Shown here: one piece after another, positions 7,743 through 54,740 of the stretch
Layout: the number at the start of each line of letters is the position of its first letter
How positions within the stretch are numbered: the first letter of the stretch is position 1
Source: Candidatus Onthocola stercorigallinarum
GTDB taxonomy: Bacteria; Bacillota_I; Bacilli_A; RF39; UBA660
Direction: 5' to 3'
NCBI GenBank assembly: GCA_018715145.1
Contig: DVMD01000095.1
Span: 1-54,740, forward strand
DNA length: 54,740 nt
The notes under the pieces: generated by a model
The model's database searches: none
What the model was told of the DNA's origin: nothing
The model's input: only the letters and a program-made list of their open reading frames with translations
Translations under genes and position numbers: made by a program

Positions 7743-7754
7743 TTTTATTCCTCC

Positions 7755-9199: not shown

Positions 9200-11101
9200 T
9201 TAATCATCTCCCATGTAAAAGAAGCCAATTCCTATTCCGTAATTTGGATCATCCGTTATCTCTATACGCCAGTCTCCACCAACATGATTATTTCCAATCA
9301 TTAAATATGTTCTAACTAGCAAATTGGCGGTTCTAACTATTGATTGTAATAAAGTCGAATCATACCCAGCATATAACAATTCAGAATCAACATTCCCAGT
9401 TTTATCCGTTACTGTAATTCCGTCTGTATCTGCATTGAATTTTGTTGGTGAATTTGTTTCGTCAATGTCCAAACCATCATCGCTAAATGTGAAACCTTTA
9501 TCAGTTTTTAAAATCGGTACACCATTTGCTAATGTTTCCTCAATTACATTTATTGATAATTCCGTAGAATTTTGAAGAGTTTGTACAGTATTAGTTAATT
9601 GAGTTACACTTTCGGCGGTAGCTAATCCATTCATTTTATCCAATGTATCTTGATAGTTGTTATTTGCCATTGCTGCATTGTTGTCTATTTGATTTTGTAA
9701 ATCATTAAGAGTCGGGTCAATGTCTTCGGTAAATTTGTACCAATTATAATCATCAAAATTGGTACTATCTGCTTCTGTAAAATCCACATATTGTCCTATA
9801 TAAGCACTAGGTTTTTCACCTTCCGAATAAGAATCATCAGCTGGAGTAAATGTTTGTCCATCTTCAGAATACTTAATATGAAGATATGATGTTTGTCCAT
9901 TTTCACCAGCTACTCCCGGACTTCCGTTTTGTCCATCAGTACCTTTTATTAAGCTCCAAGTATAATCAGTGTTTGATGTTGGTGCAGTAGAACTTGTTGT
10001 ACTTACTACACCCATGTATTTACTATTTTCATTAGGAGTTGTAGTCATTGGATTACCATCAGAATTTATTGAATATCTTATATAGAAATATGAAGATGTT
10101 CCTGCTTCTCCAGGTGGTCCTTGTATACCTTGCTCCCCAGGTTCACCTTGAGGACCTTGTGGTCCAGTATCTCCTGGATCACCAGTAATTTCTTCTTCTG
10201 CAGAATATGTGACAGTTCCATCCACATAAGTTGTCTTATTTCGTCTTAATACAATTTGACCTTCTTGCCTATTCGGAAATGTTGTAGACCACTCATCGGA
10301 AGATCCTTGTATTTTATATTCTGAAGTTATGCTAGCGACTGTATCATCAACTTTACCTTCCAAAGTTTCAACTTTAGTGGTAACTGAACTAACACTTCCT
10401 CTTATGCTTTCTGCAGTTGTTTCCAATGCCACTTTAGTTGCATAATCTGTTTCAACTGTTTTTTTAAATTGATCTAAAACCGCTTTAACATTCATTGCGT
10501 AGGTATCATCGGTATATTTAGTAGCGATTATCCAATCCACTTCATTATATTCGCCACTTGAGCGACTAGCTCGACATCTGTATAAGTCAGCATTATCTTT
10601 AAACCAAATATCCCCGACATCATAAGGCGGTGTTGGAGTAGTAACAAAAACTCTTCTTTTACTATCCGCAGTATCTTGTGCTGCATTTGCCAACGCTAAT
10701 GCTTCTGTTACATCTGAATCAGTCAATTTTAGCCAACTATATATATTGTTTTCTAAAGAAAATCGATAAGCATATCCTGTATCCTTATCGTAGTATAAAT
10801 CTCCTAAATGATTTGCTTTATCTTCTTCTGTTATCCAGTCAATAGCAGGACTATTTTCTAATGTAGGAATACCAGAAAAAAACCAAGTAGAAATGTTTCC
10901 ATCTACCTGGTCTTGTAAATTACTGATATCTTCTAAAACCTCTTTCACATAATTTTCTAAATTAGTATTGGTTTTAGTTAAATTGTCATTAAGAGTAGCT
11001 ATTGCTTTTTTGCTTCGGTTTATCTCTTCTAAATTATATCTTCTTATTAAGTCTTCAGCAGTAACTGCTTTAGTTTTATCATTATAACTTACCATTACCA
11101 A
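9200..11101 (-). CDS. Tail fibre with a collagen-like Gly-X-Y segment
   Basis: 633 aa. It contains GDPGDTGPQGPQGEPGEQGIQGPPGEAG (nt ~10100-10190), followed by two repeats of a YxxI(R/K)YS...DY.W module. Confidence 0.7.
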   Translation of the reverse strand: MVMVSYNDKTKAVTAEDLIRRYNLEEINRSKKAIATLNDNLTKTNTNLENYVKEVLEDISNLQDQVDGNISTWFFSGIPTLENSPAIDWITEEDKANHLGDLYYDKDTGYAYRFSLENNIYSWLKLTDSDVTEALALANAAQDTADSKRRVFVTTPTPPYDVGDIWFKDNADLYRCRASRSSGEYNEVDWIIATKYTDDTYAMNVKAVLDQFKKTVETDYATKVALETTAESIRGSVSSVTTKVETLEGKVDDTVASITSEYKIQGSSDEWSTTFPNRQEGQIVLRRNKTTYVDGTVTYSAEEEITGDPGDTGPQGPQGEPGEQGIQGPPGEAGTSSYFYIRYSINSDGNPMTTTPNENSKYMGVVSTTSSTAPTSNTDYTWSLIKGTDGQNGSPGVAGENGQTSYLHIKYSEDGQTFTPADDSYSEGEKPSAYIGQYVDFTEADSTNFDDYNWYKFTEDIDPTLNDLQNQIDNNAAMANNNYQDTLDKMNGLATAESVTQLTNTVQTLQNSTELSINVIEETLANGVPILKTDKGFTFSDDGLDIDETNSPTKFNADTDGITVTDKTGNVDSELLYAGYDSTLLQSIVRTANLLVRTYLMIGNNHVGGDWRIEITDDPNYGIGIGFFYMGDD

Positions 11102-14100
11102 TACACTCTCCCATCTTTAATAGTAAAACCTAATTCCGTTAAAATTAAAGTTTTCTCATCCGCCGAACTTACATTTTGATTAATGTAATTTATTATTTGC
11201 TCATTATAGTCATCAAAAGAACTATAATAAAGTTTTATGAATATTGCTTTTTGAGGTATAGATAATTTTAAAGAATTAATATAACTGATAGTTGCATCTT
11301 TCTTGTTGTCATTTTTATCTCTTATTTCATCAATTTTATCTTTGTATTCTAGATAATTATCATAATCAGTTATTTGAAGAATAGTTGTATATTTTGCAGG
11401 ATTATCTAATGCATAGTTTATTTCTTCTTTATGTAAGTAATAATCTGATACATTTCCGCCTTGTTCGGTATATTTATTAACTTTATTATAAGTTGAAGAC
11501 ATTTCTAACCCTAAAACCTCTTCTCTCGCTTTATTATAAGAATAATCAACAATAGATTTTATAATGCTAGATTTATCTTCATCACTTAACTTTTCATAAT
11601 CAGAATTATCTAATAAATTCTCAACATTTTCTTCTATTATATTTCCGGATATTTTTTGATATTCTGCTCTTTGTGAACTATCCATAGTTATTTTCTCTCC
11701 ATCACTGTTAATATAATACGGAGCAACTCTTGGCATGATTGTCGCATCACCAGTTTCTTGATACAATCTATATATTTCTTCAGCACTTTCACTAATATTT
11801 TCTGTTGATACATTAGCAGGATTCAAAAACACATTAAATATATTGTTCTTGCCGCCATATTTTTGTATTTCTCTACCCATACTATCAACACTAGGAGATA
11901 ATGTTTTACTTAAGAAAGGTATTTTAGCTTTAACACTATTTATTGAACTTTCCAAAGGTTTTCCATATTCAAAACTTGTTCTTTGAGTTCCATCAATCAT
12001 ATCAGCTATTTGTTTCATAAATGTTGGAATAGCTCGTGCTGGCAAATCAAATATTGCTTCTTGAACACCACTAGCAAGGCCATCGTTATTATTTAAAGCA
12101 GTATTAATACTTTCCATAAAGGATTGTTCTAATAATATGTTACCAGCAGTGTCTAAAGAACTTAATATCGTTTCCAAAGCACTAGCATCTTCATCTTCTT
12201 TTTGAACTATATTAGCCATAATGGAAAGCGGTGCTGCAATAGGTTGAGCCCAGTCATAAGTAAAGGATTTATTACCTATTTTTATTGAATACGAATTAAC
12301 CCCTAAAGTGTTTTTCATAAAATTTTGAACATCTTTATCATCATCACTCTCGCCACTTACTATACCTGCTTTAGCTAGTGCATATCCAGCAACATAAAGC
12401 ATAGTACCAGCAACTGCTTTACCGAGTGACTGAACAAAATCATGTTGCATTTGGGGAGTAAATTGACCAGTTTTAATAGCATTTGAAAGTCTTTTACCTT
12501 TAACTAATGTATTTACTAATCCAGCCGGCGAATAATCGACTATTGCTTTAGTTAAATTGGCAGGAGTTTTGGCAAATGGGATAAGTACATCTCCTAATCC
12601 ATATCCTCTAACATTAACATTGTTTAGCATTTTTCTTACATTTAATACAAATCTAGTATAATTATTGTTGTCTTGCCATGTTCTTGACAATGCTTCTTGA
12701 GTAGCAATATCAATCATATCTTGAGTTACTTCAGTAGTATTATTCAAGACTAATTGATTGTTAATAGAATTGGTAAATGTTGCTTCATAGAAAGTTCTAT
12801 CTCCAGCATCTAGCATAAACGACAATAAACTATCCACTCTATTTAATGCCTTTCCAATAGTAGTATTATTATTAAATGATTTGCCTTCTCCAATTTCAAA
12901 TCTATTTCCTTGAATGTTTCTTGTATTTATTCCTTGCTTAAAATCATTATAACTTTGATAAAAGCCTTCTTTAAATCCTTTAACATAGCTTTGAACATTA
13001 GTTACACCGGTTGTACGATATCCCGTTTTAGATCCTACAACTTTATCTACCATACTAGCAAATAGATCACTAAATGAATTTACTGGTGCAATAATAGCAT
13101 TACCAGCAACATTTCTAACTTGTGTTTTGGGATTGAATAACATAGATATACGCATCCAAGATTTAATACTAGCCCCTCTTTCAGGCGGTAATTTATCAGT
13201 CATAATTTTTTGGATTTTAGCCAGTTCTACTCTTTTATCATAGCCATCAGGCATAGTAGATACTTTTTGCATGATATCCATAATCGCTTCAGTTTCTTGT
13301 GGAGTTAAATCAAAATCTTTTTGATATTTATCTATCCATTTTTTAGTTTTATTTTTAACCATTCTATCATATGCTTCAGATAATTCTGATTGAGCATATT
13401 TAACCATACCTTCAGGTGTCATTCTAGCCATTATATTAAATGCTTGTACTGTTTGACCAGCTTTTGTACCCATATCACGAAGCTTTTTAGCAACAGCCAC
13501 CATACCATCAGAATCACTATTATCTGCATATTGTTTCAATAATATCCAACCTTCAGCAACATCTACTGCTGTTGCTTTTTCCGAATCCTTACTAAACCAA
13601 TTTAGAGTTTCTAATTCACCATTTTCATTTAATCTTGAAAATGCTTCATTTAAACTATCTTCATTTGTAATTTTATCGTAGTAATTAACCTCTTCATTTG
13701 CTAATATAGTATTCTTTTGTGTTTCATTTAACATGTTAGTTTTATTTCTAATATTAGAAGCAAATCTACTTTCTCCATCATTTGCTCTATTTCTATTAAC
13801 ATTAGGTAAGATTGGCGTTGTATTAGCATCTTCTGGTGTTAATTGTGATATTTCTAATGGATTTAGTATATTGTTTTGATTATTATGCATATTATTTAAT
13901 GGTAATGGTGCAATTTGACTTTGAGAAGAATTTGTGCTATTATTGTTATATGAAACAGGTTGTTCTACAAACCGACTCGCTGATTGATTTTCATTCAGAA
14001 GACCGGTCGGAACAACCTGTTTTTGTATGACTTCATCTAACGAATAAATTCTTTCTAGTCTAAAATGTTTTTCTCCATCTTGTCTTAAAACAGTATCAAA

Positions 14101-15867
14101 TTCTATTATACAATTTTTACCGTCTATGGTTACTGGAGTGGCATAATAATCCCAATTTTTATATTTAACCCTATTTTTGTTTTCTGTACTTGAAGCAATT
14201 TTTGTGCCATTTTCAATTATTTTATCTAATTTACTAAACACCTCTATATGTTCTGTTATCAATTTTTTTTGTTCTGTATTTCTAACAGTTTTAGCAACAC
14301 TTTCTTTTATATCTTCATTTGTTACTACAATGTCATCATTATTATTTTTAAATACTTTTTTGCCAATCTTACTAAACGATTCTTTTGCTTTATTAAAAAT
14401 TGTGGTTTGACTTTGAGTGCTATAGTCAACTGGAACATTAGATTTATTTGTTTGGATATTAATGTTGGTTCTAAAATCATCTTTTATAGTATTAACATAG
14501 TCATATATAGCATCATTTATATTTTGATAAGTATTAATAATGTTGTTTTGATTACTATTTATTGTTACATTACCTACATTATTTTGTAATATATTTTGGT
14601 TAACTCTATTATTAACTGCATCATTTACTATGCTATTTCCTATATTTTGATTATATGTTGGTAATATTGGACTATCATTTTGCTGCATTTGATTAATACT
14701 TTGATTTATTCTTGTATTTGACGAAAAAGCTCCACTAACACCACCAGTTAACATACCAACTAAAGCAGAATACATTGCATTTTCAAAATTTTCTTGAGTC
14801 AATAATTCGTTATTTTCTCCTAAAGTTAGATTACGGGTTAGCACATCTGCATATTCTTGAATAAATTCTTCTCCACCTTCAGAAATAGCATTCGATATCA
14901 CACTAACCAATCTAGGATTATTTTTTATAATTTTAGATAATCCTTGACCAATGCTTTGACTTAATTCAGAAGTACCAGTTCCAAATATTGCATTAGTGGT
15001 ACCACCTAACAATTTACTTGTAATAGCTTCTGTTGCGGTAGATAATGTTGCATATGTAAGTGCTTCTTCTTTAGAGTAACCTTCAGCTACCGCATTATTC
15101 CATTGATTAAAATATATATTACCAAAATATTGTACCGTTCCACTTCCTGGAATAAGTGCATTTAATGCAGCTGACATTGCTAATTTTCCACCCTCATATA
15201 AAGCACTACTACCTATTTTACCAACGGTGCCCCAAAATCCATCTCCATAACTATCCAAAACTTTTTGTTGCTTTAAATCCTCATAAGTTGGCATACTATA
15301 AGTATCGCCATTTTCATTTTTCATAATATATCTTCTGCTAGTGAAAGGGCTTATTATAGGTGCCACTACTCTACCTATCGTTTTGTCATACCAACCAATA
15401 TCATCTTCTTCTAATTTTTTATTAAGGTAATTATAATATGCCTCCCCTTCTTCATAATAAGAGTTTTCTACTTTTTCTCTTTGTTTTGCAATTTCCTTTT
15501 GTTGGTTAGCAGCATTAAACTTATCAAGATTTTCTTGTTCTTCTTTAGCACTCTCGACAACTAATGATTTCCCACCAGATATTCTATCCAGTTGATTTTG
15601 AATATTATAATCTTTATTGTTAACCCGATTTAAAACAACGGATCCCGCAGTAGGTAAAATCCCACTTTTTTGAATAACTATGCCTTGGTTATTATATTTT
15701 TTTATTAAATCATTTGTTTGTGTTTGTCTAATGTTAGATTTTTTTTGGTATTCGGCTTTAGCTTCTTCAGCGGTTTGATTGTTAATTTTATTTAATTGAT
15801 TATATTGTCTAGCAATTTTAAAACTTTGTTGATATTTCTTTTTATAATCATCATATGATACTGCCAT
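11095..15867 (-). CDS. Very large multidomain virion protein (ejection / internal / polyvalent-type protein; function not resolved)
   Basis: 1590 aa. Segments include Gly/Ala/Ser hydrophobic stretches (GSSALYEGGKLAMSAALNALIPGSG), an Asn/Gln-rich low-complexity region, and a central segment (NWDYYATPVTIDGKNCIIEFDTVLRQDGEKHFRLERIY) reminiscent of domains found in phage polyvalent proteins. It sits between the head and tail-fibre genes. Confidence 0.45.
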   Translation of the reverse strand: MAVSYDDYKKKYQQSFKIARQYNQLNKINNQTAEEAKAEYQKKSNIRQTQTNDLIKKYNNQGIVIQKSGILPTAGSVVLNRVNNKDYNIQNQLDRISGGKSLVVESAKEEQENLDKFNAANQQKEIAKQREKVENSYYEEGEAYYNYLNKKLEEDDIGWYDKTIGRVVAPIISPFTSRRYIMKNENGDTYSMPTYEDLKQQKVLDSYGDGFWGTVGKIGSSALYEGGKLAMSAALNALIPGSGTVQYFGNIYFNQWNNAVAEGYSKEEALTYATLSTATEAITSKLLGGTTNAIFGTGTSELSQSIGQGLSKIIKNNPRLVSVISNAISEGGEEFIQEYADVLTRNLTLGENNELLTQENFENAMYSALVGMLTGGVSGAFSSNTRINQSINQMQQNDSPILPTYNQNIGNSIVNDAVNNRVNQNILQNNVGNVTINSNQNNIINTYQNINDAIYDYVNTIKDDFRTNINIQTNKSNVPVDYSTQSQTTIFNKAKESFSKIGKKVFKNNNDDIVVTNEDIKESVAKTVRNTEQKKLITEHIEVFSKLDKIIENGTKIASSTENKNRVKYKNWDYYATPVTIDGKNCIIEFDTVLRQDGEKHFRLERIYSLDEVIQKQVVPTGLLNENQSASRFVEQPVSYNNNSTNSSQSQIAPLPLNNMHNNQNNILNPLEISQLTPEDANTTPILPNVNRNRANDGESRFASNIRNKTNMLNETQKNTILANEEVNYYDKITNEDSLNEAFSRLNENGELETLNWFSKDSEKATAVDVAEGWILLKQYADNSDSDGMVAVAKKLRDMGTKAGQTVQAFNIMARMTPEGMVKYAQSELSEAYDRMVKNKTKKWIDKYQKDFDLTPQETEAIMDIMQKVSTMPDGYDKRVELAKIQKIMTDKLPPERGASIKSWMRISMLFNPKTQVRNVAGNAIIAPVNSFSDLFASMVDKVVGSKTGYRTTGVTNVQSYVKGFKEGFYQSYNDFKQGINTRNIQGNRFEIGEGKSFNNNTTIGKALNRVDSLLSFMLDAGDRTFYEATFTNSINNQLVLNNTTEVTQDMIDIATQEALSRTWQDNNNYTRFVLNVRKMLNNVNVRGYGLGDVLIPFAKTPANLTKAIVDYSPAGLVNTLVKGKRLSNAIKTGQFTPQMQHDFVQSLGKAVAGTMLYVAGYALAKAGIVSGESDDDKDVQNFMKNTLGVNSYSIKIGNKSFTYDWAQPIAAPLSIMANIVQKEDEDASALETILSSLDTAGNILLEQSFMESINTALNNNDGLASGVQEAIFDLPARAIPTFMKQIADMIDGTQRTSFEYGKPLESSINSVKAKIPFLSKTLSPSVDSMGREIQKYGGKNNIFNVFLNPANVSTENISESAEEIYRLYQETGDATIMPRVAPYYINSDGEKITMDSSQRAEYQKISGNIIEENVENLLDNSDYEKLSDEDKSSIIKSIVDYSYNKAREEVLGLEMSSTYNKVNKYTEQGGNVSDYYLHKEEINYALDNPAKYTTILQITDYDNYLEYKDKIDEIRDKNDNKKDATISYINSLKLSIPQKAIFIKLYYSSFDDYNEQIINYINQNVSSADEKTLILTELGFTIKDGRVYW

Positions 15868-41169: not shown

Positions 41170-42552
41170 ATGAATAAAGAAATATATGTGGCAATTTATA
41201 TAAGAGTATCAACTACACATCAAGTTGAGGAAGGTTTTTCTCTTGATGCTCAAGAAAATAAATTAAGACAAATATGTGAATTAAATGGATACAAGATATA
41301 TAAAATATATGCTGACAAAGGAATAAGCGGTAAGGACACTATTCATAGACCAGCATTCCAACAAATGATGGAAGATATGGAGACAGGATTATTTTCTAAA
41401 ATACTAGTCATGAAATTAGATAGAATATCTAGGTCAGTTGCAGATTTAGAAAATATTATTAAGCAATTACAAAAGCATAACTGCGGATTTGAAAGCGCTT
41501 CTGAAAAAATTGATACAACTTCTTCAATGGGATTAATGTTTATACGACTGTTGGGTGTATTTGCTCAATTCGAAAGAGAAAGAATTGCCGAAAGAATTAG
41601 AGATGCATTTGATGAAAAAATCAAACAAGGTGGTGCAGTAACCAGATCATTACCTATGGGATATAAAATTGGAACAGATGATAAAGGCAAGAAAATCGTA
41701 ATCAAAGACATTGAGAAAGAAGAAATAGTTAAAGATATGTTTGATACTTATGAACGGACTAATTCGTTACAAAAAACCGCGGATTATTTAAATGAAAAGT
41801 ATCCTGATAAATTAAATAAATATATGGCTACCGGACAAGGAATAAGTAGAGCATTAGATAGCAAAATGTATTATGGATATTATCGTGGTAACGACAGTTA
41901 CTGCGAACCGTATGTCAGTAAAGAAAGATGGGAACGATTAAACGAAATTAAAAAATCTAAAAATATTAAAGGTTATAAACACACATTCATTTTTAGTGGT
42001 ATACTAAAATCATCTTGTGGACATTATTTAGTAGGTCATTTCTGCCACGGAGAAAATGCTTATCGATGTAAAATTTATTCAACTAACAAAAAATGTTCAT
42101 GCAACTCTGTGCGTGAAAAATATGTTGAAAAGCAGTTCCTAGATAAACTTAACGATTCATTAATAGAATATATTGATAAATACACTATCAAGATATCAAA
42201 TTCTAAATATATTGATAATACCAAAAAAATTAAATCTTTAGAAGAAAAAAAGCAAAAAATAATTAGTTCATTTATTAACGGGTGGATTAATGAAGATGCC
42301 GCAAAATCAGAAATTAATCAAATAGAAGTTTCTATAAAAGAACTTAAAAAAGACAATAAAATAGAAGATATAGAGGCATTAAAAAAGATTATAAATTCAA
42401 ATTGGAGAGAAAAATATAATCACTTTACAAAAGAAGAAAAACAAGCTTTTATAAGAAACTTAAATATAGACTATATCTATATAGATCATGAAAAATATAA
42501 TCAAGGATGGAGGGATAGAAAACCAGAATTTTTAACTATTTATTTCAAATAG
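41170..42552 (+). CDS. Large serine recombinase (phage integrase)
   Basis: 460 aa. It has a resolvase-type N-terminus with the catalytic Ser context AIYIRVSTTHQ and LDRISRS, a recombinase domain, a Cys-rich zinc-ribbon region (SCGHYLVGHFCHGENAYRCKIYSTNKKCSC) and a C-terminal coiled coil. It ends 28 nt before the att core. Confidence 0.95.
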   Translation: MNKEIYVAIYIRVSTTHQVEEGFSLDAQENKLRQICELNGYKIYKIYADKGISGKDTIHRPAFQQMMEDMETGLFSKILVMKLDRISRSVADLENIIKQLQKHNCGFESASEKIDTTSSMGLMFIRLLGVFAQFERERIAERIRDAFDEKIKQGGAVTRSLPMGYKIGTDDKGKKIVIKDIEKEEIVKDMFDTYERTNSLQKTADYLNEKYPDKLNKYMATGQGISRALDSKMYYGYYRGNDSYCEPYVSKERWERLNEIKKSKNIKGYKHTFIFSGILKSSCGHYLVGHFCHGENAYRCKIYSTNKKCSCNSVREKYVEKQFLDKLNDSLIEYIDKYTIKISNSKYIDNTKKIKSLEEKKQKIISSFINGWINEDAAKSEINQIEVSIKELKKDNKIEDIEALKKIINSNWREKYNHFTKEEKQAFIRNLNIDYIYIDHEKYNQGWRDRKPEFLTIYFK

Positions 42553-45562: not shown

Positions 45563-46912
45563 TTAAGGCAATAATAATTTTTGACCTATTGATAATGTAG
45601 TTGTTGATAGATTATTTAATTTAGTAATTGCTGATACGGTGGTACCAAATTCTTCTGCTATACCATATAAGGTATCTCCTGATTTTACGGTATAAACTAC
45701 ATTATCACTACTGCTACTTGGTATTTTTAGAGTCTGACCAATACTTAAAGTATTACTCGTTAAATTATTTAACGATTTTAAAGCATCAACTGTAGTATTA
45801 TATTTATTAGCTATTGCATATAATGTATCTCCTGCTTTTACAGTATAAGTATTAGTACTTGTACTATTACTACCTGGTAATTTTAAAACTTGACCTATTG
45901 ATAATGTATTACTTGTTAAATTATTTAGTGATTTTAATGTATCAACTGTTGTGTTATATTTATTAGCTATTCCATAAAGGGTATCTCCTGATTTTACAGT
46001 ATAGGTATTAGTACTAGCTGTAGTACTTGGTAATTTTAAAACTTGACCAATAGACAAGGAATCAGTGGTTAAATTGTTGATAGATTTCAAGTTATCAACA
46101 GTTGTATTAAATTTATTGGCTATACCATATAATGTATCACCTTTTTGAACTATATATTCATCAGTAGTAGTCTCAGATTCTTTAGTTGGAATAAGTAAAT
46201 TTTGACCAATACTTAGTAAATTACTTGTTAAATTATTAGCTTGTTTTAATTCATCCACTGTAATACCGTACTTTTTAGAAATACTCCATAGGGAATCTCC
46301 ACTTTTAACTGTATAGTAATTAGAACCAGTCGGAGCAATATAAGTACCACCAGCATATTCCACAATTGCTTTAGTTACCGCTTCAGCGAGGTCTTCCCAA
46401 TTATTTTTAATTTGAGAAACATCATCTCCAGTAGAATCTGCAAAGCCATATTCAACAATTACTGTTTCGTTATTGGGGGTATCACGCATTATGTAATAAT
46501 AATCTTTCGCGGGATTGCTAGGCAATCTTCTTTGATAATACTTTCTCACATTTTGGCCAGCGGTTTCTAACTCTTTAGCTATTTTAGCTGAAAATGTATC
46601 ATCATTGCGAAGGGCATAAATAACCTCAGCACCATCACCACCCCCAGCATTAATGTGATTAGATACAACTATTACATCTTCGCCATTACCATAAAAACTT
46701 TGAATACGCCCAGGCCTTGAATTACTATCAAGTGTTTCATCACTAGTCCTAGACATTTCATTAGGCATTCCTAACTCATCTAATCTGTTATGAATATAAT
46801 CACTAATTTTTAAAGTATATTCTTTTTCAGTTATTCCATTTGCAATAGTCCCAGGATCATCCCCACCATGTCCAGCATCAATTACCACCTTTTTTAAAGC
46901 TCTATTATCCAT
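45563..46912 (-). CDS. N-acetylmuramoyl-L-alanine amidase (Amidase_3) with five LysM repeats
   Basis: The N-terminus KVVIDAGHGGDDPG is followed by 5 copies of YTVKSGDTLYGIANKYNTTVD.LKSLNNLTS..LSIGQ.LK.P. The start is moved to the ATG at 46912 (AGGTGA RBS). Confidence 0.85.
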   Translation of the reverse strand: MDNRALKKVVIDAGHGGDDPGTIANGITEKEYTLKISDYIHNRLDELGMPNEMSRTSDETLDSNSRPGRIQSFYGNGEDVIVVSNHINAGGGDGAEVIYALRNDDTFSAKIAKELETAGQNVRKYYQRRLPSNPAKDYYYIMRDTPNNETVIVEYGFADSTGDDVSQIKNNWEDLAEAVTKAIVEYAGGTYIAPTGSNYYTVKSGDSLWSISKKYGITVDELKQANNLTSNLLSIGQNLLIPTKESETTTDEYIVQKGDTLYGIANKFNTTVDNLKSINNLTTDSLSIGQVLKLPSTTASTNTYTVKSGDTLYGIANKYNTTVDTLKSLNNLTSNTLSIGQVLKLPGSNSTSTNTYTVKAGDTLYAIANKYNTTVDALKSLNNLTSNTLSIGQTLKIPSSSSDNVVYTVKSGDTLYGIAEEFGTTVSAITKLNNLSTTTLSIGQKLLLP

Positions 46913-47021
46913 GTATATCACCTAGAATATTATATGAATATTTTAAATATTGGTTATATCGTGGTTTAATTACAATTCAAAAACATCTAACAATAATCAT
47001 CAATAAAAAAGTTTTACTAAA

Positions 47022-47501
47022 TCAAACTTCTATTGGTTTATAATCTATTACTTCTACTGAAACACATTTATGTAACTCTTTACTAAATCCCTCATCTTCT
47101 AATGGTTTATTATGAATATGTCCATGAACATTAATAAAACCAACAGGTATATCTCTATCAGGAATAGGCCGATGAGATAAAATTATCTTTTTATCTTCAA
47201 TTAAAGTTCTAGTTGGAATAACTTCCAAGCCATGAGTATTGTAATAATTAATAGATTTACCATCATGATTACCACGAATTAAATATATTTTGCCATTCAA
47301 TTTACTAACTAAATTAGTAATATCACTATTTTTAAAAGCAAAATCTCCAAGATGATAAACTATATCATTTTCGTTTACTACACTGTTCCAATACTTTATT
47401 AATTCTTCATTCATTTCTTCTACATTACTAAAGGGACGATTACAATACTTTATAATATTGGTATGACCAAAATGAGTATCAGCAATAAAATATGTTTTCA
47501 T
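47022..47501 (-). CDS. Calcineurin-like metallophosphoesterase
   Basis: Motifs IADTHFGH, HLGDF, RGNHDG and VHGHIH are present in canonical order. Confidence 0.8.
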   Translation of the reverse strand: MKTYFIADTHFGHTNIIKYCNRPFSNVEEMNEELIKYWNSVVNENDIVYHLGDFAFKNSDITNLVSKLNGKIYLIRGNHDGKSINYYNTHGLEVIPTRTLIEDKKIILSHRPIPDRDIPVGFINVHGHIHNKPLEDEGFSKELHKCVSVEVIDYKPIEV

Positions 47502-47560
47502 TATTCCTCCAGTTTACTATCACCCATAGCATAATCAATAGTAATCCCAGGGCGTACATT
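47501..47560 (-). pseudogene. Relic of the 3' end of a nuclease gene paralogous to 50095-50826
   Basis: 47499-47560 matches 50093-50154 at 52 of 62 nt. It encodes NVRPGITIDYAMGDSKLEE*, compared with NVQPGIIIDYETGDSKLEE* in the intact gene. Both share the same TAATG junction with the downstream gene. The frame is closed upstream of 47560. Confidence 0.7.
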
Positions 47561-47589
47561 TTTTAATTAAAAAACTATATTTAAAAAAC

Positions 47590-49434
47590 TTATATTTTTC
47601 TTACAGAATCATACACAATTGCTATTTTTTCAAACACACTATCCGTTTCATCAATTAATATTTTTTTTACTTTGTCTATATTTTTAATAAAGTTAAATAA
47701 CGAATATGTATTTTTTTCTGAATCTCTATACACATCTATATAATCAATATAAAAAGAAATGGTGTCATTTACAATATCATACAAAAAACCAGTTGTTGTT
47801 TCCATTTGTAAATTTTTATTTCCATGAAATTGCTTATTTCTTAGATAATAAGCATCCATTAATAATTCTTTTGCCTCTTTATGAAACATTTGAAAATACA
47901 CCTCATATTGAAGTACCATATTCTTTACTCGACAATATTTCCATGTCAAGAAATCACAATTATCAGGATTTCTCCCATCAAAATTCAAAAAAATATTCTC
48001 TACGAAATTATTACTCAATTTATTAAAACCTTTATACATTTTCTTAATTTGTACCGCTGTTAAATATATATATCCCGATAACATTCTATCCGCCACCAAA
48101 TAACTAGCATAATCTTCAAAAGACTTAGAAATATTATCTCCAGCATTTCTAAACAAAGTCTCCAAAGCAAACCATGTATTTGTAAATTTAGTTAATGTCG
48201 ATTCAGAATTTTTGTAGTATGGCAATAATTGTACAGCTTCATCTATAATTCTATTTATATCACTATCACTATTGTCTATAACATATCTTTTAAACACATC
48301 AGAATAATCAATTCTATCTTGCGTTAATGGTTTAAAAACATCATCATAAAAATTATAATAATTTATAAAATTTTTGTGTTCTTTGTTCTCTATTAAAAGA
48401 TAATCGCCTATAGTATTTACTTTTATTCCAGAATAAAGCATTGAACCAATAAATGGCTGAAGTACTTTCTGCTTAAATTTGCGAATTGCTTGCCAAATGT
48501 CTTTACTATATATTTCAGATGATAAATAATAATTATTATCTCTTTTAATTTTAATATCACTAATTATTTCTGATAAGTGTTTTTTATTATTAATCATAGA
48601 TTCTTCCAAAAATTTAATCAATCCGGACTTGCTATATATAATATAATTATTATTCCCAGATTGTTTTAATACACTTAATAATTTTTCATCAAATTCTTTA
48701 TCCATTTTTATAAAAATTATATATTTATTTTCAGAATCATATTGCTCTGCAAATTTAATAAACATATCACTAAAAGAAGAAAATGATTTCTTTTCAAAAA
48801 AATTTCTATATGCATCACGCACAATTTTTTTTATTTCAAAAATACTTATCCCTATATAATCTATAAGTAATGCGAAATACTCATTAGATAATTCAGCTAT
48901 TTCATCAAAATTATCATAATTAAATTCTTCACTTACTACTAAATCAAACAAACTATCTGATATATTGTCAAAATATTTATTATCAATTAAACTTATATAA
49001 ATCAATTTCAAGTTTTCTATTAAGTTTAAGTCATCATTTTCATTAATAAACTGAATATATCTTTTTTTGTGATCAGCTTTTATAAATTTATTGTTTTTTA
49101 TTGCATCTCTTATATAATCAATTTTATGCTTAGGAATTTTAGCTATTTTTTCTTTAGCCTCAAATTGCTTGTTTATATCTTCATAATAGCTTATTATTTT
49201 CTTTATTTTTCCTAACAGTGAATTATTTAAATTTCTACTTCCAAGCATAGAAATACTACTTAAATTTTCTATAATATAATTTAAAAAAAACATCATATTT
49301 CTATTTTTTAAGCCAATTCTATTAAAATCATCATTACTAACAATATTTTTGCTTGAAAAAAGTAGCTGTTTAATAAACTTTTCTTCGTCATCTAAAACCC
49401 TACTATATAATAATAATTTTTCTGTTACCTTCAT
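47590..49434 (-). CDS. Large orphan protein with a C-terminal HEPN-like Rx4H motif (candidate defence/abortive-infection nuclease)
   Basis: 614 aa, extremely AT-rich. WFALETLF ... YYLRNKQFHG places the R-N-K-Q-F-H motif at nt 47824-47841. No other recognisable domains were found. Confidence 0.4.
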   Translation of the reverse strand: MKVTEKLLLYSRVLDDEEKFIKQLLFSSKNIVSNDDFNRIGLKNRNMMFFLNYIIENLSSISMLGSRNLNNSLLGKIKKIISYYEDINKQFEAKEKIAKIPKHKIDYIRDAIKNNKFIKADHKKRYIQFINENDDLNLIENLKLIYISLIDNKYFDNISDSLFDLVVSEEFNYDNFDEIAELSNEYFALLIDYIGISIFEIKKIVRDAYRNFFEKKSFSSFSDMFIKFAEQYDSENKYIIFIKMDKEFDEKLLSVLKQSGNNNYIIYSKSGLIKFLEESMINNKKHLSEIISDIKIKRDNNYYLSSEIYSKDIWQAIRKFKQKVLQPFIGSMLYSGIKVNTIGDYLLIENKEHKNFINYYNFYDDVFKPLTQDRIDYSDVFKRYVIDNSDSDINRIIDEAVQLLPYYKNSESTLTKFTNTWFALETLFRNAGDNISKSFEDYASYLVADRMLSGYIYLTAVQIKKMYKGFNKLSNNFVENIFLNFDGRNPDNCDFLTWKYCRVKNMVLQYEVYFQMFHKEAKELLMDAYYLRNKQFHGNKNLQMETTTGFLYDIVNDTISFYIDYIDVYRDSEKNTYSLFNFIKNIDKVKKILIDETDSVFEKIAIVYDSVRKI

Positions 49435-49615
49435 ACTACCATCCTTAAATATAAAATAATATTATTTAATACTATTATACCATAAAAAAATTATTATTAC
49501 ATATTTTTATTAATGTTTAAGAATAACTAGAAACATTATTTCTAGCATTAGTGAATAACTAATTTCTAAAGTTCCCTCATCTATCTAATTCACCTACAAT
49601 ATCATTTTATCATAT

Positions 49616-50095
49616 TTATTCATTTGCAATATATTTCAAATAAATATTTCTTACTCCTCTTTTAAATTCCTTATTCCTTTTTAACTCAAATCCATCTAAC
49701 AATAAATTTTTGATTGAATACTTATTATCTGGATGCACAGTGCATATTGCATATTTATATCCTAACTTCAATGAATATTCATCAAGTTCTTTAAGCATTT
49801 GATATTGTAATTGATTTCCAATATATTTCGGATTTACAAACATAGGGCCATAATCAGCTACATCTCTATATTTTATTTTTATACTCAAATCAAAACTATT
49901 TAAAGCATTTTCATCACATGGTATTAACATCATTGAGCAAACTGGCTCATCAGCATCATAATAAATCCAATCTTCTTTTGAAAAATCTCCTAGCCAATCA
50001 GGATGTTCCATATTATCTTTTACTTGTTTTCTAAATTCAATATATTCATCTAAATTTATATTATCACTATTACATTTTAATTCATTTAATCTCAT
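49616..50095 (-). CDS. GNAT-family acetyltransferase (tentative)
   Basis: 159 aa. Its size and beta-alpha pattern fit, and there is an acetyl-CoA-site-like segment (FVNPKYIGNQLQYQMLKEL). Its start overlaps the nuclease stop (TAATG). Confidence 0.4.
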   Translation of the reverse strand: MRLNELKCNSDNINLDEYIEFRKQVKDNMEHPDWLGDFSKEDWIYYDADEPVCSMMLIPCDENALNSFDLSIKIKYRDVADYGPMFVNPKYIGNQLQYQMLKELDEYSLKLGYKYAICTVHPDNKYSIKNLLLDGFELKRNKEFKRGVRNIYLKYIANE

Positions 50096-50826
50096 TATTC
50101 CTCCAATTTACTATCTCCAGTTTCATAATCAATAATAATTCCAGGTTGTACATTATAAACAAATACATTAAATGATATTCCTTCACCATTATCTTCAATA
50201 GAATATGCTTCCATTTCAACACCAGTTGCAACTAAGTTATCCCCTTCAAAGTATGGAGTAACTTTATATAACACATGATTGCCGGTTTCCTCAATATATG
50301 CCGCAACTTCATTTTCAAATTGAAGCATAGTTGTTGCATTCATATATCTTGTACAAGTAATTAAATTTTCCGCATTAGCATTTTCTCCAGTTAATTGATA
50401 ACCTATTAAATGACAACGATTATATAAGTATTTTCCACTCACAATATCATATCTAACCGTATGCCAACCACTAGGTTCTATACTACCAATACTGCCTCTT
50501 TCTTCTGTGGGCATAGTATCCTTACTAACACTTGCAAAAGCTACACCACATCTACCTAAATTATCTAAAGGACTATAATATTCAAATGATTCTAATGCTT
50601 TTTCTTCATCAGAAAAATTTGGAACATTATCATTTATATAAACATAAGCTTCTCCACTATATTCAGAAATGTTTTCTAAATTAGTATAATTTTCTTTAAC
50701 TTCATTTTCTTCTATTAATGTAACATATTCTTCATGAACATAATAAATAAAATATCCCAGCAAAAAACAAAAGACAACACCTAATAATTTATTTAAATTT
50801 TTCTTTCTTTTTCTTCTTCTAGCCAT
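50095..50826 (-). CDS. Membrane-anchored DNA/RNA non-specific endonuclease (DNA-entry nuclease / EndA-NucA type)
   Basis: It has an N-terminal anchor (LLGVVFCFLLGYFIYYV). PLDNLGRCGVAFA ... WHTVRYD ... YNRCHLIGYQLTGENANAENL matches the family pattern. Confidence 0.7.
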   Translation of the reverse strand: MARRRKRKKNLNKLLGVVFCFLLGYFIYYVHEEYVTLIEENEVKENYTNLENISEYSGEAYVYINDNVPNFSDEEKALESFEYYSPLDNLGRCGVAFASVSKDTMPTEERGSIGSIEPSGWHTVRYDIVSGKYLYNRCHLIGYQLTGENANAENLITCTRYMNATTMLQFENEVAAYIEETGNHVLYKVTPYFEGDNLVATGVEMEAYSIEDNGEGISFNVFVYNVQPGIIIDYETGDSKLEE

Positions 50827-50910
50827 AATACTACCCCTTTCATTATATCAAATTTGACTAAAATAAACAATTATGTTAAAATATTATTCAATCTGAAAGG
50901 GGGAAAACTT

Positions 50911-51561
50911 ATGTCTCAAGATTTGTATAAAGGCCAATGTGGTTCTTGCAAAAATTATCAAATCAATGATTTGAGAGGAGCAGAAAGAGACGGATACGGT
51001 TGTAGCTATCAAGGAAGAGTATTTGGATCCCCATATTATAAAAGATTCCCATTTGATTACTCCTGCGGAGGCTACAAAAAAGATTCATATCGTACCGATA
51101 AAGATATTCAAAAAGCTTATGAAGCTCTTGACCGTAGATATGGATATCGTCCTGGCAAATCCACATGGTATTACATTGCAACATTTGTTACCGAAACACT
51201 AGGAACTGAAGCATGTGAAAATTATTTCACAACTATTGCCCAATTTCGTGAACAAGTATTAGAAAAAAAGATCATAAAATATGCATCATTCTTAGTAGAA
51301 TATGATATGTATGGTAGATTAATTGCTAATTCTTTATACCAAGATGAGCAAAAAGAATTAATAGCTAAAGAATTATTATTTAATTATATAATTCCAACTT
51401 GTTTATTAATTAATCAAAAAAAATATGATGAAGCATTAAATATATACATAGAAATGTTTGAAAAACTAAAAGAAATGTATAATATAACTACAATTAAAGA
51501 TTATGATTTTGCAAATACTTCAAGTTTAGATGAAGACCAAATTAGTAAATTAACAAGATAA
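50911..51561 (+). CDS. Hypothetical protein with a Cys-rich N-terminus
   Basis: The start is moved to the ATG at 50911 (GAAAGGGGGA RBS). The N-terminus contains CGSC...GC...SCGG. The remainder is helical. Confidence 0.35.
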   Translation: MSQDLYKGQCGSCKNYQINDLRGAERDGYGCSYQGRVFGSPYYKRFPFDYSCGGYKKDSYRTDKDIQKAYEALDRRYGYRPGKSTWYYIATFVTETLGTEACENYFTTIAQFREQVLEKKIIKYASFLVEYDMYGRLIANSLYQDEQKELIAKELLFNYIIPTCLLINQKKYDEALNIYIEMFEKLKEMYNITTIKDYDFANTSSLDEDQISKLTR

Positions 51562-51573
51562 AAGAAGGCCAAA

Positions 51574-52047
51574 TTAGTCTTCTTTTAGTTTGCCAACATC
51601 TATCCATTCTTTAAAATTTGAATATTCTCCTAATTCTGGAATAGTTAGTTTAATTGCACTACTTGCACTCCCACAAGCGGGATATACATATTCAAATCTC
51701 TTTAAAGATTCATCTAAATAAACAGTAATTCCTTCATTTATAGCAAAAGGACAAACTCCTCCAGCGGCATGACCAATAACACACTCTAACTCATCAGCTT
51801 GAATCATTTTTGCTTTACAACCAAATTTTTGCTTATATTTTGGATTATCAACTTTAGTATCTCCCGCCAAAACTATAAGTATGGGCTTATCATCTACCCA
51901 AAAAGACATTGTTTTAGCAATATGAGCCTCATCGCATCCTATTGCTAATGCCGCATCATGAACAGTTGCACTGGATTCATTAAATTCAAGTACATCTTCC
52001 TCACGACCAAATTTTTTAAAATATTCTTTTACTTTATCAATTGCCAT
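51574..52047 (-). CDS. YbaK/EbsC-type aminoacyl-tRNA deacylase (editing domain protein)
   Basis: HIAKTMSFWVDDKPILIVLAGDTKVD..K ... IGHAAGGVCPF is the YbaK-family pattern. The start is moved to MAIDKV at 52047. Confidence 0.7.
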   Translation of the reverse strand: MAIDKVKEYFKKFGREEDVLEFNESSATVHDAALAIGCDEAHIAKTMSFWVDDKPILIVLAGDTKVDNPKYKQKFGCKAKMIQADELECVIGHAAGGVCPFAINEGITVYLDESLKRFEYVYPACGSASSAIKLTIPELGEYSNFKEWIDVGKLKED

Positions 52048-52642
52048 TATTAACCACATCCTTAACTTCTGTTTTACATATTAAATCATGAATTCCTAAA
52101 TGCTTTTTACTAAATATCACAATTCCACCATTAATATAAAAGAAAATACCTACTATAAATGTTAAAGCCATATCAACATATAAATATACATTTGCATCAA
52201 ATATCCACAAAGCAAGTAAACTTAATACTTCAAATATAATATTATATATAATCAAAGTCCTAAGTAACATTTGCCAAATACTTACTTTTTTATTTTTACT
52301 TGTAACACTAATATTGAAAGCTTTTTTACCCAATGTTTGATTATGATTCCATTTTTGAAATCCGACAAAATATAATAAATAGATAACTATTGTACTAATA
52401 GATACTGACACACTATATTTATCTAAATTATAATAAATATTTTTAAATTCAGCACTATTAACAGCATCAAAATTGCCATCCACGACTTCATCATACATTA
52501 CAGCATAATCATTATAAGCACTTACATATTCATCATAACTAGGATTTAAAAATCTAATTTGACTAACCATAGTAGTAAGTAAAATTATAAAAATATAATC
52601 AAGAGCATACGCACAAATTCTTCTAAATGTTAAACTATCCAT
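52037..52642 (-). CDS. RDD-family membrane protein
   Basis: The N-terminal RRICAYALDYIFI motif is followed by several TM helices. Confidence 0.6.
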   Translation of the reverse strand: MDSLTFRRICAYALDYIFIILLTTMVSQIRFLNPSYDEYVSAYNDYAVMYDEVVDGNFDAVNSAEFKNIYYNLDKYSVSVSISTIVIYLLYFVGFQKWNHNQTLGKKAFNISVTSKNKKVSIWQMLLRTLIIYNIIFEVLSLLALWIFDANVYLYVDMALTFIVGIFFYINGGIVIFSKKHLGIHDLICKTEVKDVVNNGN

Positions 52643-52691
52643 AAATCACCACATAAATATTGTACACTCATTCCAAGAAAAAAGCAAACTT

Positions 52692-53831
52692 TTATGTAGT
52701 TTGCCGATTTGTTCCAAGAGTTACTTCTATATCTCTAGTATCTCCATTACGATAAACTGTAAATGTTACTGTATCTCCAACATTATGTTGATATAGATAA
52801 TATCTTAAATAAGCAACACTAGGTACTTCTTCGCCATCCATAGCAGTAATTATATCATTTGCTCTAATTCCTCCATTAGCTGCTGGAGAATCTTCTACAA
52901 CATCAGTAACTATTACTCCACCATCTAAATTAGATTGTCTAATTAAACTATAATATTGAGAAAAATAAGCATCAGCAAAGTCTAACATAGATACTCCTAA
53001 ATATGGATAATCAGTTACTTCACCATTAATAATATCTTCAGCTTTATCAATTGCATCTTCAATTGGAATAGCAAATCCCATACCTTCAATACCATCATTT
53101 ACTAATTTCAAGGAAGTAATACCTATAACTTCTCCATTAGCATTACATAAAGGTCCACCACTATTACCAGAATTTATAGCAGCATCTGTTTGTAATGTTC
53201 TCATTATATAATTACCATTATCAATTTCTACTTCAACCATTCTATCTTTTCCAGAAATAATACCACGAGTTACAGTCCAAGAATAAGCACTATCAAGTGG
53301 AGCTCCAACAGCAAAAGTAGTATCGCCAATTCTTGTTTCATCATTATTACCTATTTCAGCAACTGTATATTCTTCATTACTTTCAATTGCTAAAACAGCT
53401 ATATCTTGATATTCATCAAAACCTATAATTTCTGTTTCAACAATAGAACCATCAGTAAATGTAACTGTTACATGATTACCATCCTCAATTACATGATAAT
53501 TAGTAAGTAGATAATAAGTATCTCCATCATGACGATATACAAAACCAGTACCTGATGCTACATAAGTATCATCACTATAAGTTGAAACAACTACAACTGC
53601 ATCATAAACTTTAGCTACCGCTTCAGCTATTCCTGTATCATTAATTGTAACATTTCTCTCTTCTCTAGTTACTGACTCAGTTAAAGTAACAGGGAAAAAG
53701 TAAATAATAGCATACATTATAATACAACCTACAAAAAATACCACAATATAAGATATTATCTTTTTAGACCAATTATTTTTATTATTATGTTCATTATTAA
53801 CTGGTTCAACATTATTTAAATTTTCTTCCAT
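52692..53831 (-). CDS. htrA: HtrA/DegP-family serine protease with a PDZ domain
   Basis: It has an N-terminal TM anchor. The catalytic contexts are TNYHVIE, DIAVL and GNSGGPL. The C-terminus is PDZ-like (GGVIVTDVVEDSPAANGGIRANDIITAMDG). Confidence 0.9.
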   Translation of the reverse strand: MEENLNNVEPVNNEHNNKNNWSKKIISYIVVFFVGCIIMYAIIYFFPVTLTESVTREERNVTINDTGIAEAVAKVYDAVVVVSTYSDDTYVASGTGFVYRHDGDTYYLLTNYHVIEDGNHVTVTFTDGSIVETEIIGFDEYQDIAVLAIESNEEYTVAEIGNNDETRIGDTTFAVGAPLDSAYSWTVTRGIISGKDRMVEVEIDNGNYIMRTLQTDAAINSGNSGGPLCNANGEVIGITSLKLVNDGIEGMGFAIPIEDAIDKAEDIINGEVTDYPYLGVSMLDFADAYFSQYYSLIRQSNLDGGVIVTDVVEDSPAANGGIRANDIITAMDGEEVPSVAYLRYYLYQHNVGDTVTFTVYRNGDTRDIEVTLGTNRQTT

Positions 53832-53832
53832 T

Positions 53833-54740
53833 TTAATCCATCCTCACAATCTCTTTATAATTATTAGGAAATCCCATCGCATATAACACTTTATCAATTC
53901 GTATAACTTCTAGTTTTCCCGCCAAACGATCTATTTCATAGCTTATTTCATTCATAAATAAAGTAAAATCATCTTTATCTAATATAAATTTTAAAATAAT
54001 AACTAAAGCAAATAGATCATTTTTACCATAAATATACTCACCATCAGCTTTAGTAATATAAAGCATACGATGATACTTAGTATCTTCAATTGCTTTTTGA
54101 GTTTTATTGTTATAACAAATATCTTCATGAGCACACAAATTACGATAATTTGCTAAGAGCGGTAAATACTCAATCATACTATAAACATCAACTCCAAAAG
54201 CTTCAGCTATTTCTAATTGGTCTTGATATTGCAGTATTGTATATAATTCACCTACAATTCCAAATGACAACACTTTGACAACAACCCATAAGGGAATATA
54301 GCCATAATTTATTAAATAGTGAGCAGTAGCAGAATGTTGTTTACCATTAACACTAATTTGTCTTTTCATCTTTCTAATTAGATCATTAATTTGTTTTTTC
54401 TTTTTAGAATCTTTGACAAAATTATTAGGGTTTAAATAGTTATTTTCTTTAAAACCATGATTTTTACTCATAACATAAGCTAATATACTTTTTAAATTAT
54501 TTTCAACAATTAATATATTCTTAAAAATAATATTGCGTATTTGCCTATCAAAAGTAAACATAGCATAAAGCTCTCTAAATGTGGTACCACTTAAGAATCT
54601 TTTACTGTCACTTTCTAAAAAAAGATGCCTATACCCACTTAAAAAGAAATAGTTTTCTCGAAGCAATATTTTTCTTGTCTCATCAATATCTTCGATAACT
54701 AAGCCTTTATTCTTAAGTATGTCAATTTGTTCATCTAATG
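53833..54740 (-). CDS. AbiD/AbiF (Abi_2) family abortive-infection protein; N-terminus runs off the right window edge
   Basis: The frame is open to the window edge (hand translation ...LDEQIDILKNKGLVIEDIDETRKILLRENYFFLSGYRHLF). The family-typical YRNLCAHED (RNxxAH HEPN motif) is present. The track start at 54666 is an internal TTG. Confidence 0.75.
   Translation of the reverse strand, partial: LDEQIDILKNKGLVIEDIDETRKILLRENYFFLSGYRHLFLESDSKRFLSGTTFRELYAMFTFDRQIRNIIFKNILIVENNLKSILAYVMSKNHGFKENNYLNPNNFVKDSKKKKQINDLIRKMKRQISVNGKQHSATAHYLINYGYIPLWVVVKVLSFGIVGELYTILQYQDQLEIAEAFGVDVYSMIEYLPLLANYRNLCAHEDICYNNKTQKAIEDTKYHRMLYITKADGEYIYGKNDLFALVIILKFILDKDDFTLFMNEISYEIDRLAGKLEVIRIDKVLYAMGFPNNYKEIVRMD

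Follow-up and report, generated by a model that had tools for sequence, protein, structure and literature searches.

A laterally mobile gene for a three-domain protein with an HEPN-like C terminus, a candidate single-protein abortive-infection system of small-genome gut Bacillota

What is the function of a 614-codon reading frame whose relatives all lack a name, and does its product act alone or together with the enzyme encoded next to it? This question is raised by a contig of Candidatus Onthocola stercorigallinarum (DVMD01000095.1), the 54,740 nt of which form the window analyzed here. The feature under study (positions 47022 to 49434) comprises a gene for a 614-amino-acid protein (P0001; positions 47590 to 49434, reverse strand), followed on the same strand by a calcineurin-type metallophosphoesterase gene. 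A first-pass annotation of the window had pointed out the long open reading frame (ORF), an RNKQFH motif and an 88-nt gap between the two genes, all of which we found in place. It had also correctly described the frame as extremely AT-rich, with a GC content of 0.23 to 0.25 over 47 to 50 kb compared to 0.27 to 0.34 in most 1-kb intervals, and as devoid of recognizable N-terminal domains; searches of Pfam, PADLOC, NCBIfam, PHROGs, and PDB sequences yielded nothing significant. Our analysis shows that the 614-aa gene is a laterally mobile single-gene cassette that recurs among defence genes, and it makes the encoded protein a candidate abortive-infection factor with a putative RNase domain at its C terminus.

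The 614-codon frame is open from start to stop, and the ratio of nonsynonymous to synonymous substitution rates (dN/dS) was 0.088 and 0.089 against its two closest loci, L001 and L021. An AlphaFold2 (AF2) model built from a 40-sequence alignment reached a predicted local distance difference test (pLDDT) score of 83 and a predicted template modelling (pTM) score of 0.85. On the strength of the substitution ratios and the model, this is a genuine gene maintained by purifying selection. It is preceded by an AAGGA ribosome-binding site (positions 49442 to 49446, reverse strand), read from the sequence, and by a putative extended −10 promoter element of its own, TGGTATAAT (positions 49474 to 49482, reverse strand), identified as a consensus match; this element is covered by the homology with the copy in genome G028 (locus L088), which reaches position 49505.

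The 614-aa protein is not the orphan that it was first taken for. A word-indexed search of 5.8 billion proteins returned 46 matches at 47 to 100% identity, so that the family counts at least 46 relatives, nearly all full length at 608 to 627 residues; all are unnamed or annotated as hypothetical, and they come from metagenome-assembled genomes (MAGs) of Bacillota or Erysipelotrichales. Beyond this circle, an exhaustive phmmer search of 1.84 billion representative proteins and a profile search with the C-terminal domain alone recovered only the family itself and its fragments, and no distant relative was visible by sequence in either. The family is very rare, and its distribution is patchy. A search with its profile found matches in 3 of 399 other species of the same GTDB family and in none of 21 species of the same genus, and a pattern scan of 185,579 GTDB species representatives yielded eight loci, all from gut MAGs, which bear the labels Bacilli, Bacillota, Candidatus Coprosoma, Erysipelotrichales, or "Mycoplasma" and, in one case, Muribaculaceae. 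The last (L090; CAYNHT010000002.1, "uncultured Muribaculaceae") was considered as a cross-phylum transfer and rejected: its ORF layout equals that of L004, where the called genes are of Bacillota type (a YutH spore-coat protein, PgpA, and an LtaS-type sulfatase), and a mistake in binning or labelling is the probable source of the name. Homologues were absent from 50,697 GenBank phage records, 72,556 plasmids (PLSDB), and the IMG/VR viral contigs. Two copies are inactivated. The L008 homologue carries W323*, a TGG-to-TGA change at an invariant tryptophan seen in one metagenome sample, and the copy of genome G028 (L088, positions 8001 to 8400) has a 1-nt deletion in an A7 run, which may reflect either true slippage at the homopolymer or a fault of the assembly; both may be signs of cost or dispensability.

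Comparison with related genomes suggests how the gene came to its present place. In two genomes of the same genus (G706 and G698), the sequences corresponding to positions 46641 to 47551 (the 5′ end of an amidase gene and the phosphoesterase gene) and 50092 to 54740 (a nuclease gene through to an Abi_2 gene) are contiguous at 86 to 92% identity (blastn; L075 and L076), so that the 2,540 bp at positions 47552 to 50091 are additional in the window. This block, absent from G706 and G698, contains a GNAT gene, a 181-nt intergenic region with TGGTATAAT and AAGGA, and the 614-aa gene. It is bracketed by a 62-nt direct repeat with copies 84% identical: one (positions 50093 to 50154, reverse strand) is the intact 3′ end of the Endonuclea_NS_2 gene (PF13930, 3e-23), and the other (positions 47499 to 47560, reverse strand) is, by alignment, a relic of the same 3′ end that retains the GGAGGAATAATG stop/start junction to the phosphoesterase. 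The slot behind this membrane nuclease gene exists in three states within one genus (L075, L076, L077, and the window). The nuclease is followed by the phosphoesterase in G706, G698, and G701; by the GNAT gene and then a different 327-aa orphan, where the 614-aa gene would sit, in G689; and by the GNAT gene, the 614-aa gene, the nuclease relic, and the phosphoesterase in the window. This arrangement suggests that recombination at the conserved nuclease 3′ end swaps the downstream cargo.

Other carriers confirm that the unit of exchange is small. DNA homology between the window and other carriers stops within 8 nt 3′ of the stop codon and 12 to 71 nt 5′ of the start codon, and in the most distant carriers it ends inside the gene. 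Between the window and L001, the 614-aa protein is 86% identical, compared to 46% for HtrA, 56% for Abi_2, and 62% for the amidase N terminus among the syntenic flanks, which points to a transfer later than the split of the two genomes; far stronger constraint on the 614-aa gene than on HtrA is a less likely explanation of these identities. In three species (L001, L086, and L088), an insert with the gene at one of its ends interrupts an amidase-LysM gene, which is intact in the window at positions 45563 to 46921. The inserts span positions 7632 to 17538 in L001 (where the element is about 8.7 kb), 7583 to 13330 in L086, and 7603 to 15695 in L088; they share a serine recombinase and a Fic gene or Fic remnant, and their variable cargo is an EcoRI-type methylase with GmrSD/HNH versus Dcm with a 379-aa ORF. 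Altogether, the 614-aa gene moves as a single gene, autonomous and laterally mobile, and it occupies cargo slots of defence islands and small integrative elements in small-genome gut Bacillota.

Of 13 contexts, 11 have restriction-modification, Abi, or toxin-antitoxin genes at most 8 kb from the 614-aa gene (a plain count, with a rough background check). The company is varied. L001 to L003 hold Fic, an EcoRI-type methylase, GmrSD/HNH, and a serine recombinase; L086 and L088 hold a Dcm methylase with the 379-aa ORF and a serine recombinase. UvrD, a MazG-like gene 9 nt upstream, an Eco57I-like gene, and DarT-NADAR surround the copy in L006/L007, and L008/L009 combine Abi_alpha, two Dcm methylases with NgoFVII, a TPR-CSD protein, and RnlA-RnlB. 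A recombinase, an N6 methylase, and a helicase matching PDC-S53 were found in L010; an SF1 helicase with DUF2726, Dcm with NOV_C, and again a MazG-like gene 9 nt upstream in L011/L012; and M78-Fic, a Mokosh-like helicase, DUF2726, and HsdM in L018/L019. The contig of P0018 carries HsdR and McrBC, L021/L022 carry DUF4420, AIPR (which matches MzaE), Dcm, and a MazG-like gene with an SLFN helicase, L089 has HsdR immediately upstream, and in L092 an SLFN-type helicase lies two genes away. PADLOC matches among these neighbours include REase_II (4e-139), PDC-S72, MzaE, PDC-S53 (3e-289), and DarT. The carrier genomes themselves are poor in restriction-modification genes, with zero to two C5 methylases and zero to three N6 methylases each, and in G028 (1.2 Mb) the sole C5 (Dcm) methylase lies about 430 nt from the 614-aa gene. 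Recurrent defence neighbours (11 of 13 contexts) combined with a patchy distribution (3 of 399 species) correspond to our operational definition of a defence-island resident. The gene had been put forward as an uncharacterized defence or abortive-infection candidate, and the neighbourhoods of its homologues bear this out; a role of some sort in defence or conflict is likely.

No neighbour gene is conserved across the 13 contexts, and beside the gene we found no tandem-repeat RNA of the type III antitoxin style (trivial AT repeats only) and no Rfam family. The 614-aa gene thus looks self-contained. No adjacent antitoxin-like partner was found either. In two distant lineages (P0047 and P0023), the 104-aa MazG-like gene (PF12643; L006, positions 7678 to 7992; L011, 7677 to 7991; L021, 5021 to 5335) is located upstream of the 614-aa gene at a spacing of 9 nt; in L021 it lies instead 9 nt upstream of the SLFN-type helicase. 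It is either a conserved flank of the cargo slot or an occasional partner.

The AF2 model divides the protein into three parts. Residues 1 to 232 (positions 48739 to 49434, reverse strand) are predicted to form an all-helical domain (pLDDT mostly 84 to 97), which is the least conserved part of the protein (mean pairwise identity, 51%) and a putative sensor or regulatory region. Residues 233 to 387 (positions 48274 to 48738, reverse strand) are modelled as an alpha/beta domain with strands at 236 to 247, 301 to 310, 341 to 351, and 354 to 360, helices between them, and a low-confidence linker at 361 to 391; its mean pairwise identity is 58%, and it has many invariant polar residues, such as D249, D312, D364, and D365. 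A possible PD-(D/E)xK nuclease motif in this domain (E349-x-K351) was dropped since K351 is not conserved. Residues 388 to 614 (positions 47593 to 48273, reverse strand) are predicted to be helical again and form the HEPN-like, putative effector domain. This part contains the most conserved blocks of the whole protein, residues 396 to 470 (76% pairwise identity) and 510 to 570 (70%), separated by a variable stretch, 471 to 509 (48% identity; 1 of 39 columns invariant). Such a division is usual where a sensor that varies is fused to a conserved effector. No relative of the N-terminal domain was found by Pfam, PADLOC, NCBIfam, or PHROGs or by Foldseek, and Foldseek found no fold relative of the middle domain.

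HEPN domains are four-helix up-down bundles whose two helical hairpins are separated by an insert of low conservation; they carry an Rx4-6H motif in which the arginine is directly followed by a polar residue (N, D, or H) and, upstream, a further acidic residue that is conserved and usually lies within Ex3[KR] (PMC3710099). In the 614-aa protein, R532-N-K-Q-F-H537 (positions 47824 to 47841, reverse strand) has the form R[N]x3H. Across 40 homologues, no substitution occurs at R532, Q535, F536, H537, or G538, and the conservation of N533 is at least 90%. Of the six histidines, H537 alone is conserved (100% versus at most 17% for the others), and R532 is one of two invariant arginines among 20. 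Upstream, in the helix containing WFALETLF (residues 421 to 428), E425-T-L-F-R429 (positions 48148 to 48162, reverse strand) is the only Ex3[KR] in the C-terminal half, with E425 invariant and R429 97% conserved (K in P0047). In the model, RNKQFH lies at the C-terminal end of a helix spanning residues 510 to 537, followed by a loop (538 to 543) and a further helix (544 to 569). Such a motif alone is weak evidence, as the first-pass annotation had cautioned, because the strict form R[NDH]xxxH arises in 3.6% of shuffles of the protein and the loose form Rx4-6H in 45%; judged from the alignment, the conservation of H537 and R532 lifts it above chance. Rx4-6H with N, Ex3[KR], the helix-end position, and the variable insert agree with the published description of HEPN (PMC3710099), with the layout taken from a model whose pLDDT is 50 to 71 in this region.

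Taken together, we propose, with a probability of roughly 45% for the proposal as a whole, that the 614-aa gene encodes a single-protein abortive-infection system with a sensor-activated HEPN-type RNase effector. The protein would be expressed from its own promoter and kept inactive by autoinhibition until its variable N-terminal helical and middle alpha/beta domains sense an infection cue. The C-terminal domain would then work as a metal-independent HEPN-type RNase, with H537 as the general base in a site that R532, N533, and E425 would complete, probably at the interface of a dimer; cleavage of tRNA or other cellular RNA would stop growth before the phage cycle is completed. The HEPN fold, the RNase activity, the sensing step, and the anti-phage phenotype are all inferred. 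A further formulation, in which a hitherto undescribed three-domain single-protein anti-phage system restricted to uncultured small-genome gut Bacillota pairs an effector that is either a new, highly divergent HEPN family or a new RNase fold sharing the R/H/E triad with N-terminal domains that are a new infection sensor lacking PDB or BFVD relatives, is held a little more tentatively.

Several results weigh against this proposal. Two contexts, L004 and L090, contain housekeeping genes only, and no restriction-modification gene lies near the gene in the window. The second hairpin (residues 531 to 570) is modelled at a pLDDT of 50 to 71, and the placement of the motif is insecure. Searches with the 614-aa protein against Pfam, NCBIfam, PHROGs, and PADLOC gave nothing significant, with Telomerase_RBD (0.019) and ParB (0.004) appearing below threshold as noise; none of the PADLOC-DB v2.0.0 families matched at E values up to 1. 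Pfam searches with 40 family members recovered no HEPN family except DUF4145 in 1 of 40 (E = 0.028), which is one (PMC3710099); DUF5392 in 7 of 40 (best 5e-5) and NP1-WLL in 5 of 40 were taken as compositional noise. Ten C-terminal pieces, including the consensus, gave nothing relevant in Pfam at E values up to 10, and phmmer and profile searches of PDB sequences found no match. By hhalign, the C-terminal profile aligned to a self-built 30-sequence Abi_2 alignment with a probability of 0.1%, the family profile being shallow (effective number of sequences, 2.2), and the N-terminal, middle, and full-length profiles with at most 0.1%. Other HEPN families were too few in the genomes for comparison alignments: HEPN_Apea had 1 match in 201 genomes, HEPN_RiboL-PSP 1 above the cutoff, and DUF4145 7. 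Profile-level homology to a recognized HEPN family was therefore not found, either by Pfam on the 40 members or by hhalign against Abi_2. Foldseek comparisons of the full model (pLDDT 83) with PDB and BFVD, and of the C-terminal model (pLDDT 71) with PDB, returned nothing at E < 0.1 and no HEPN chain among the top 50. This outcome does not refute a HEPN fold, because confidence in the model is low precisely where the motif lies. Of the HEPN tail suggested at first pass, then, the R-N-x3-H motif stands as invariant and is joined by an Ex3[KR], while neither profile nor fold comparison supplies a HEPN match; because the motifs and layout agree with HEPN, profile homology was not found, and Foldseek gave no match on a weak model, we call the C-terminal domain HEPN-like rather than an established member of the superfamily.

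These negative searches also suit a defence or conflict gene whose C-terminal domain is not HEPN at all, its invariant Arg and His being catalytic or binding residues of an unsolved fold, for example in a different nuclease, an NTP-dependent switch, or an effector-recruiting scaffold. The context and mobility data apply to such a protein just as well, and D249, D312, D364, and D365 of the middle domain could form a second active site. We regard this as rather unlikely, as the strict R-N-x3-H, the sole conserved histidine, the upstream Ex3R, and the helix-end position with the variable insert jointly fit the published traits (PMC3710099), and HEPN families are known to be mutually undetectable except through these motifs. 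Somewhat less likely still is that the gene is a nondefensive accessory of mobile elements, serving maintenance or addiction, exclusion of competing elements, or counterdefence, with the defence genes co-travelling merely as fellow cargo. Its place at the edge of serine-recombinase elements in L001, L086, and L088, its patchy distribution and occasional inactivation, and the fact that no phenotype is known would fit; however, the gene also resides in recombinase-free chromosomal restriction-modification/Abi clusters (L006, L009, L011, L018, L021, and L089) and, without a recombinase, in the housekeeping context of L004, it has no homologue in the phage, plasmid, and viral collections searched, and neither an antitoxin-like partner nor an RNA repeat adjoins it.

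Two further readings concern the gene's neighbour and its very existence. The phosphoesterase (positions 47022 to 47501, reverse strand; Pfam Metallophos, 1.6e-9; PHROG 547 phosphoesterase, 1.2e-46) starts 88 nt past the stop codon of the 614-aa gene, and the shared strand, the short gap, and the lack of a terminator-like hairpin between the two genes would suit a two-gene defence operon, which is what the idea of a joint locus amounted to. As a conserved system this is refuted and retains hardly any probability. The 88-nt spacer contains the 62-nt nuclease relic with the original stop/start junction, the phosphoesterase directly abuts the nuclease gene without the 614-aa gene in G706, G698, and G701, and it stands beside the 614-aa gene in none of the 12 other contexts. 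Moreover, the carrier genomes G028 and G237 have no phosphoesterase homologue, and in G339 the only match is a fragment of 32% identity located on a different contig. When one genome was sampled per genus, 6 of 100 other genera of the family had a homologue. In L018, a Metallophos gene of 267 aa that is unrelated lies about 3.5 kb from the 614-aa homologue. The phosphoesterase is thus a neighbour by recombination, not a partner; because no terminator-like hairpin was found, read-through into it is possible in this genome, as a local accident of recombination. That the 614-aa frame might be a nonfunctional chance ORF is suggested by its strong AT-richness and lack of database annotation, but a dN/dS of 0.09, 46 homologues with identity down to 47% and about 90 invariant columns, and a confident model (pTM, 0.85) refute it and make it the most improbable reading of all.

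The wider window adds some observations of its own. The AbiD/F gene at its right edge had been read as a sign of a variable defence region. Abi_2 is present in all nine sampled genera of the family (genomes of 0.8 to 1.3 Mb), which makes it unusually conserved and near-core for an "abortive infection" gene, and the Abi_2-HtrA pair (positions 52692 to 54738) is syntenic in the distant relative L001. Given both facts, the AbiD/F gene looks lineage conserved, at least here, and provides no evidence of a variable island. Judged from ORF layout alone, positions 1 to 42935 look mostly prophage-like, with a tape-measure-sized 1,590-aa ORF (positions 11095 to 15867) and a 460-aa ORF resembling a serine recombinase (positions 41170 to 42552). 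Just past the prophage-like part, the ORF at positions 42597 to 42935 matches the DNA of a Hydrolase_2 (SleB-type) gene of L001 at 73% identity and may be a disrupted integration target. L001 also contains a diversity-generating retroelement (bAvd and RVT_1; L001, positions 456 to 2384) about 6 kb from the 614-aa homologue, adjoining pilin-like genes (T4SS_pilin and N_methyl).

The 614-aa family is unannotated, absent from PADLOC-DB v2.0.0, and without a detectable sequence or structural relative, although many similar defence-island orphans exist. If it is HEPN, it is a new family and a new architecture within a well-known kind of system. The proposal, if true, would add both to the single-protein HEPN abortive-infection systems, together with sensor domains that lack known structural relatives, and a positive phage assay would supply a new model for defence-finding tools. 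The hosts are uncultured gut Bacillota with genomes of 1.0 to 1.3 Mb and a small, mostly unexplored defence repertoire. The locus is also a worked example of defence-cargo exchange, with one gene under its own putative promoter in at least three kinds of slot: the nuclease/phosphoesterase interval, the edge of an amidase-splitting serine-recombinase element, and the position directly behind a MazG-like gene.

How does the 614-aa protein compare with known systems? RnlA/LsoA and PrrC/RloC, HEPN-type RNase toxins that a partner restrains, are likewise multidomain proteins with a C-terminal HEPN-type RNase directed against phage (PMC8266594; PMC3710099); they need an antitoxin (RnlB) or a restriction partner (EcoprrI), whereas the 614-aa gene has no conserved neighbour in 13 contexts and its product no sequence match to them. 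AbiD/AbiF (Abi_2, PF07751; window positions 53833 to 54738), also a proposed abortive-infection RNase, shares R-N-x3-H and an Ex3K/R helix about 105 to 120 residues upstream. In contrast, the 614-aa protein is twice its size, has two extra domains, and is linked to it neither by hhalign (0.1%) nor by a Pfam match, and its family occurs in 3 of 399 species compared to Abi_2 in 9 of 9 sampled genera. ApeA (Apea-like HEPN family, PF18739), a single-protein abortive-infection tRNA anticodon nuclease (bioRxiv 10.64898/2026.01.26.701840), is likewise one polypeptide without a partner gene, is located in defence islands, and has a large noncatalytic N-terminal region followed by a C-terminal HEPN-type motif, and the logic proposed by analogy, in which a sensor pocket activates an RNase, would be the same. 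The 614-aa protein differs in that it matches neither HEPN_Apea nor the Apea N-terminal domains by sequence or profile, and the N-terminal domain of ApeA consists mostly of beta strands (PMC3710099), unlike the helical and alpha/beta domains predicted here. DARNA (PD-T7-3), a HEPN RNase switched on by single-stranded DNA that phage SSB presents (bioRxiv 10.64898/2026.02.22.705581), resembles it as an all-in-one protein with an Rx4H domain and a helical noncatalytic domain, and it aborts infection by tRNA cleavage. Its HEPN domain is N-terminal (residues 1 to 159 of 456), in contrast to the C-terminal motif of the 614-aa protein, which also has no PADLOC-DB match of any kind. As single-protein HEPN systems with separate sensor domains, ApeA and DARNA nevertheless provide a precedent for the sensor-activated, single-protein design that we propose for the 614-aa protein.

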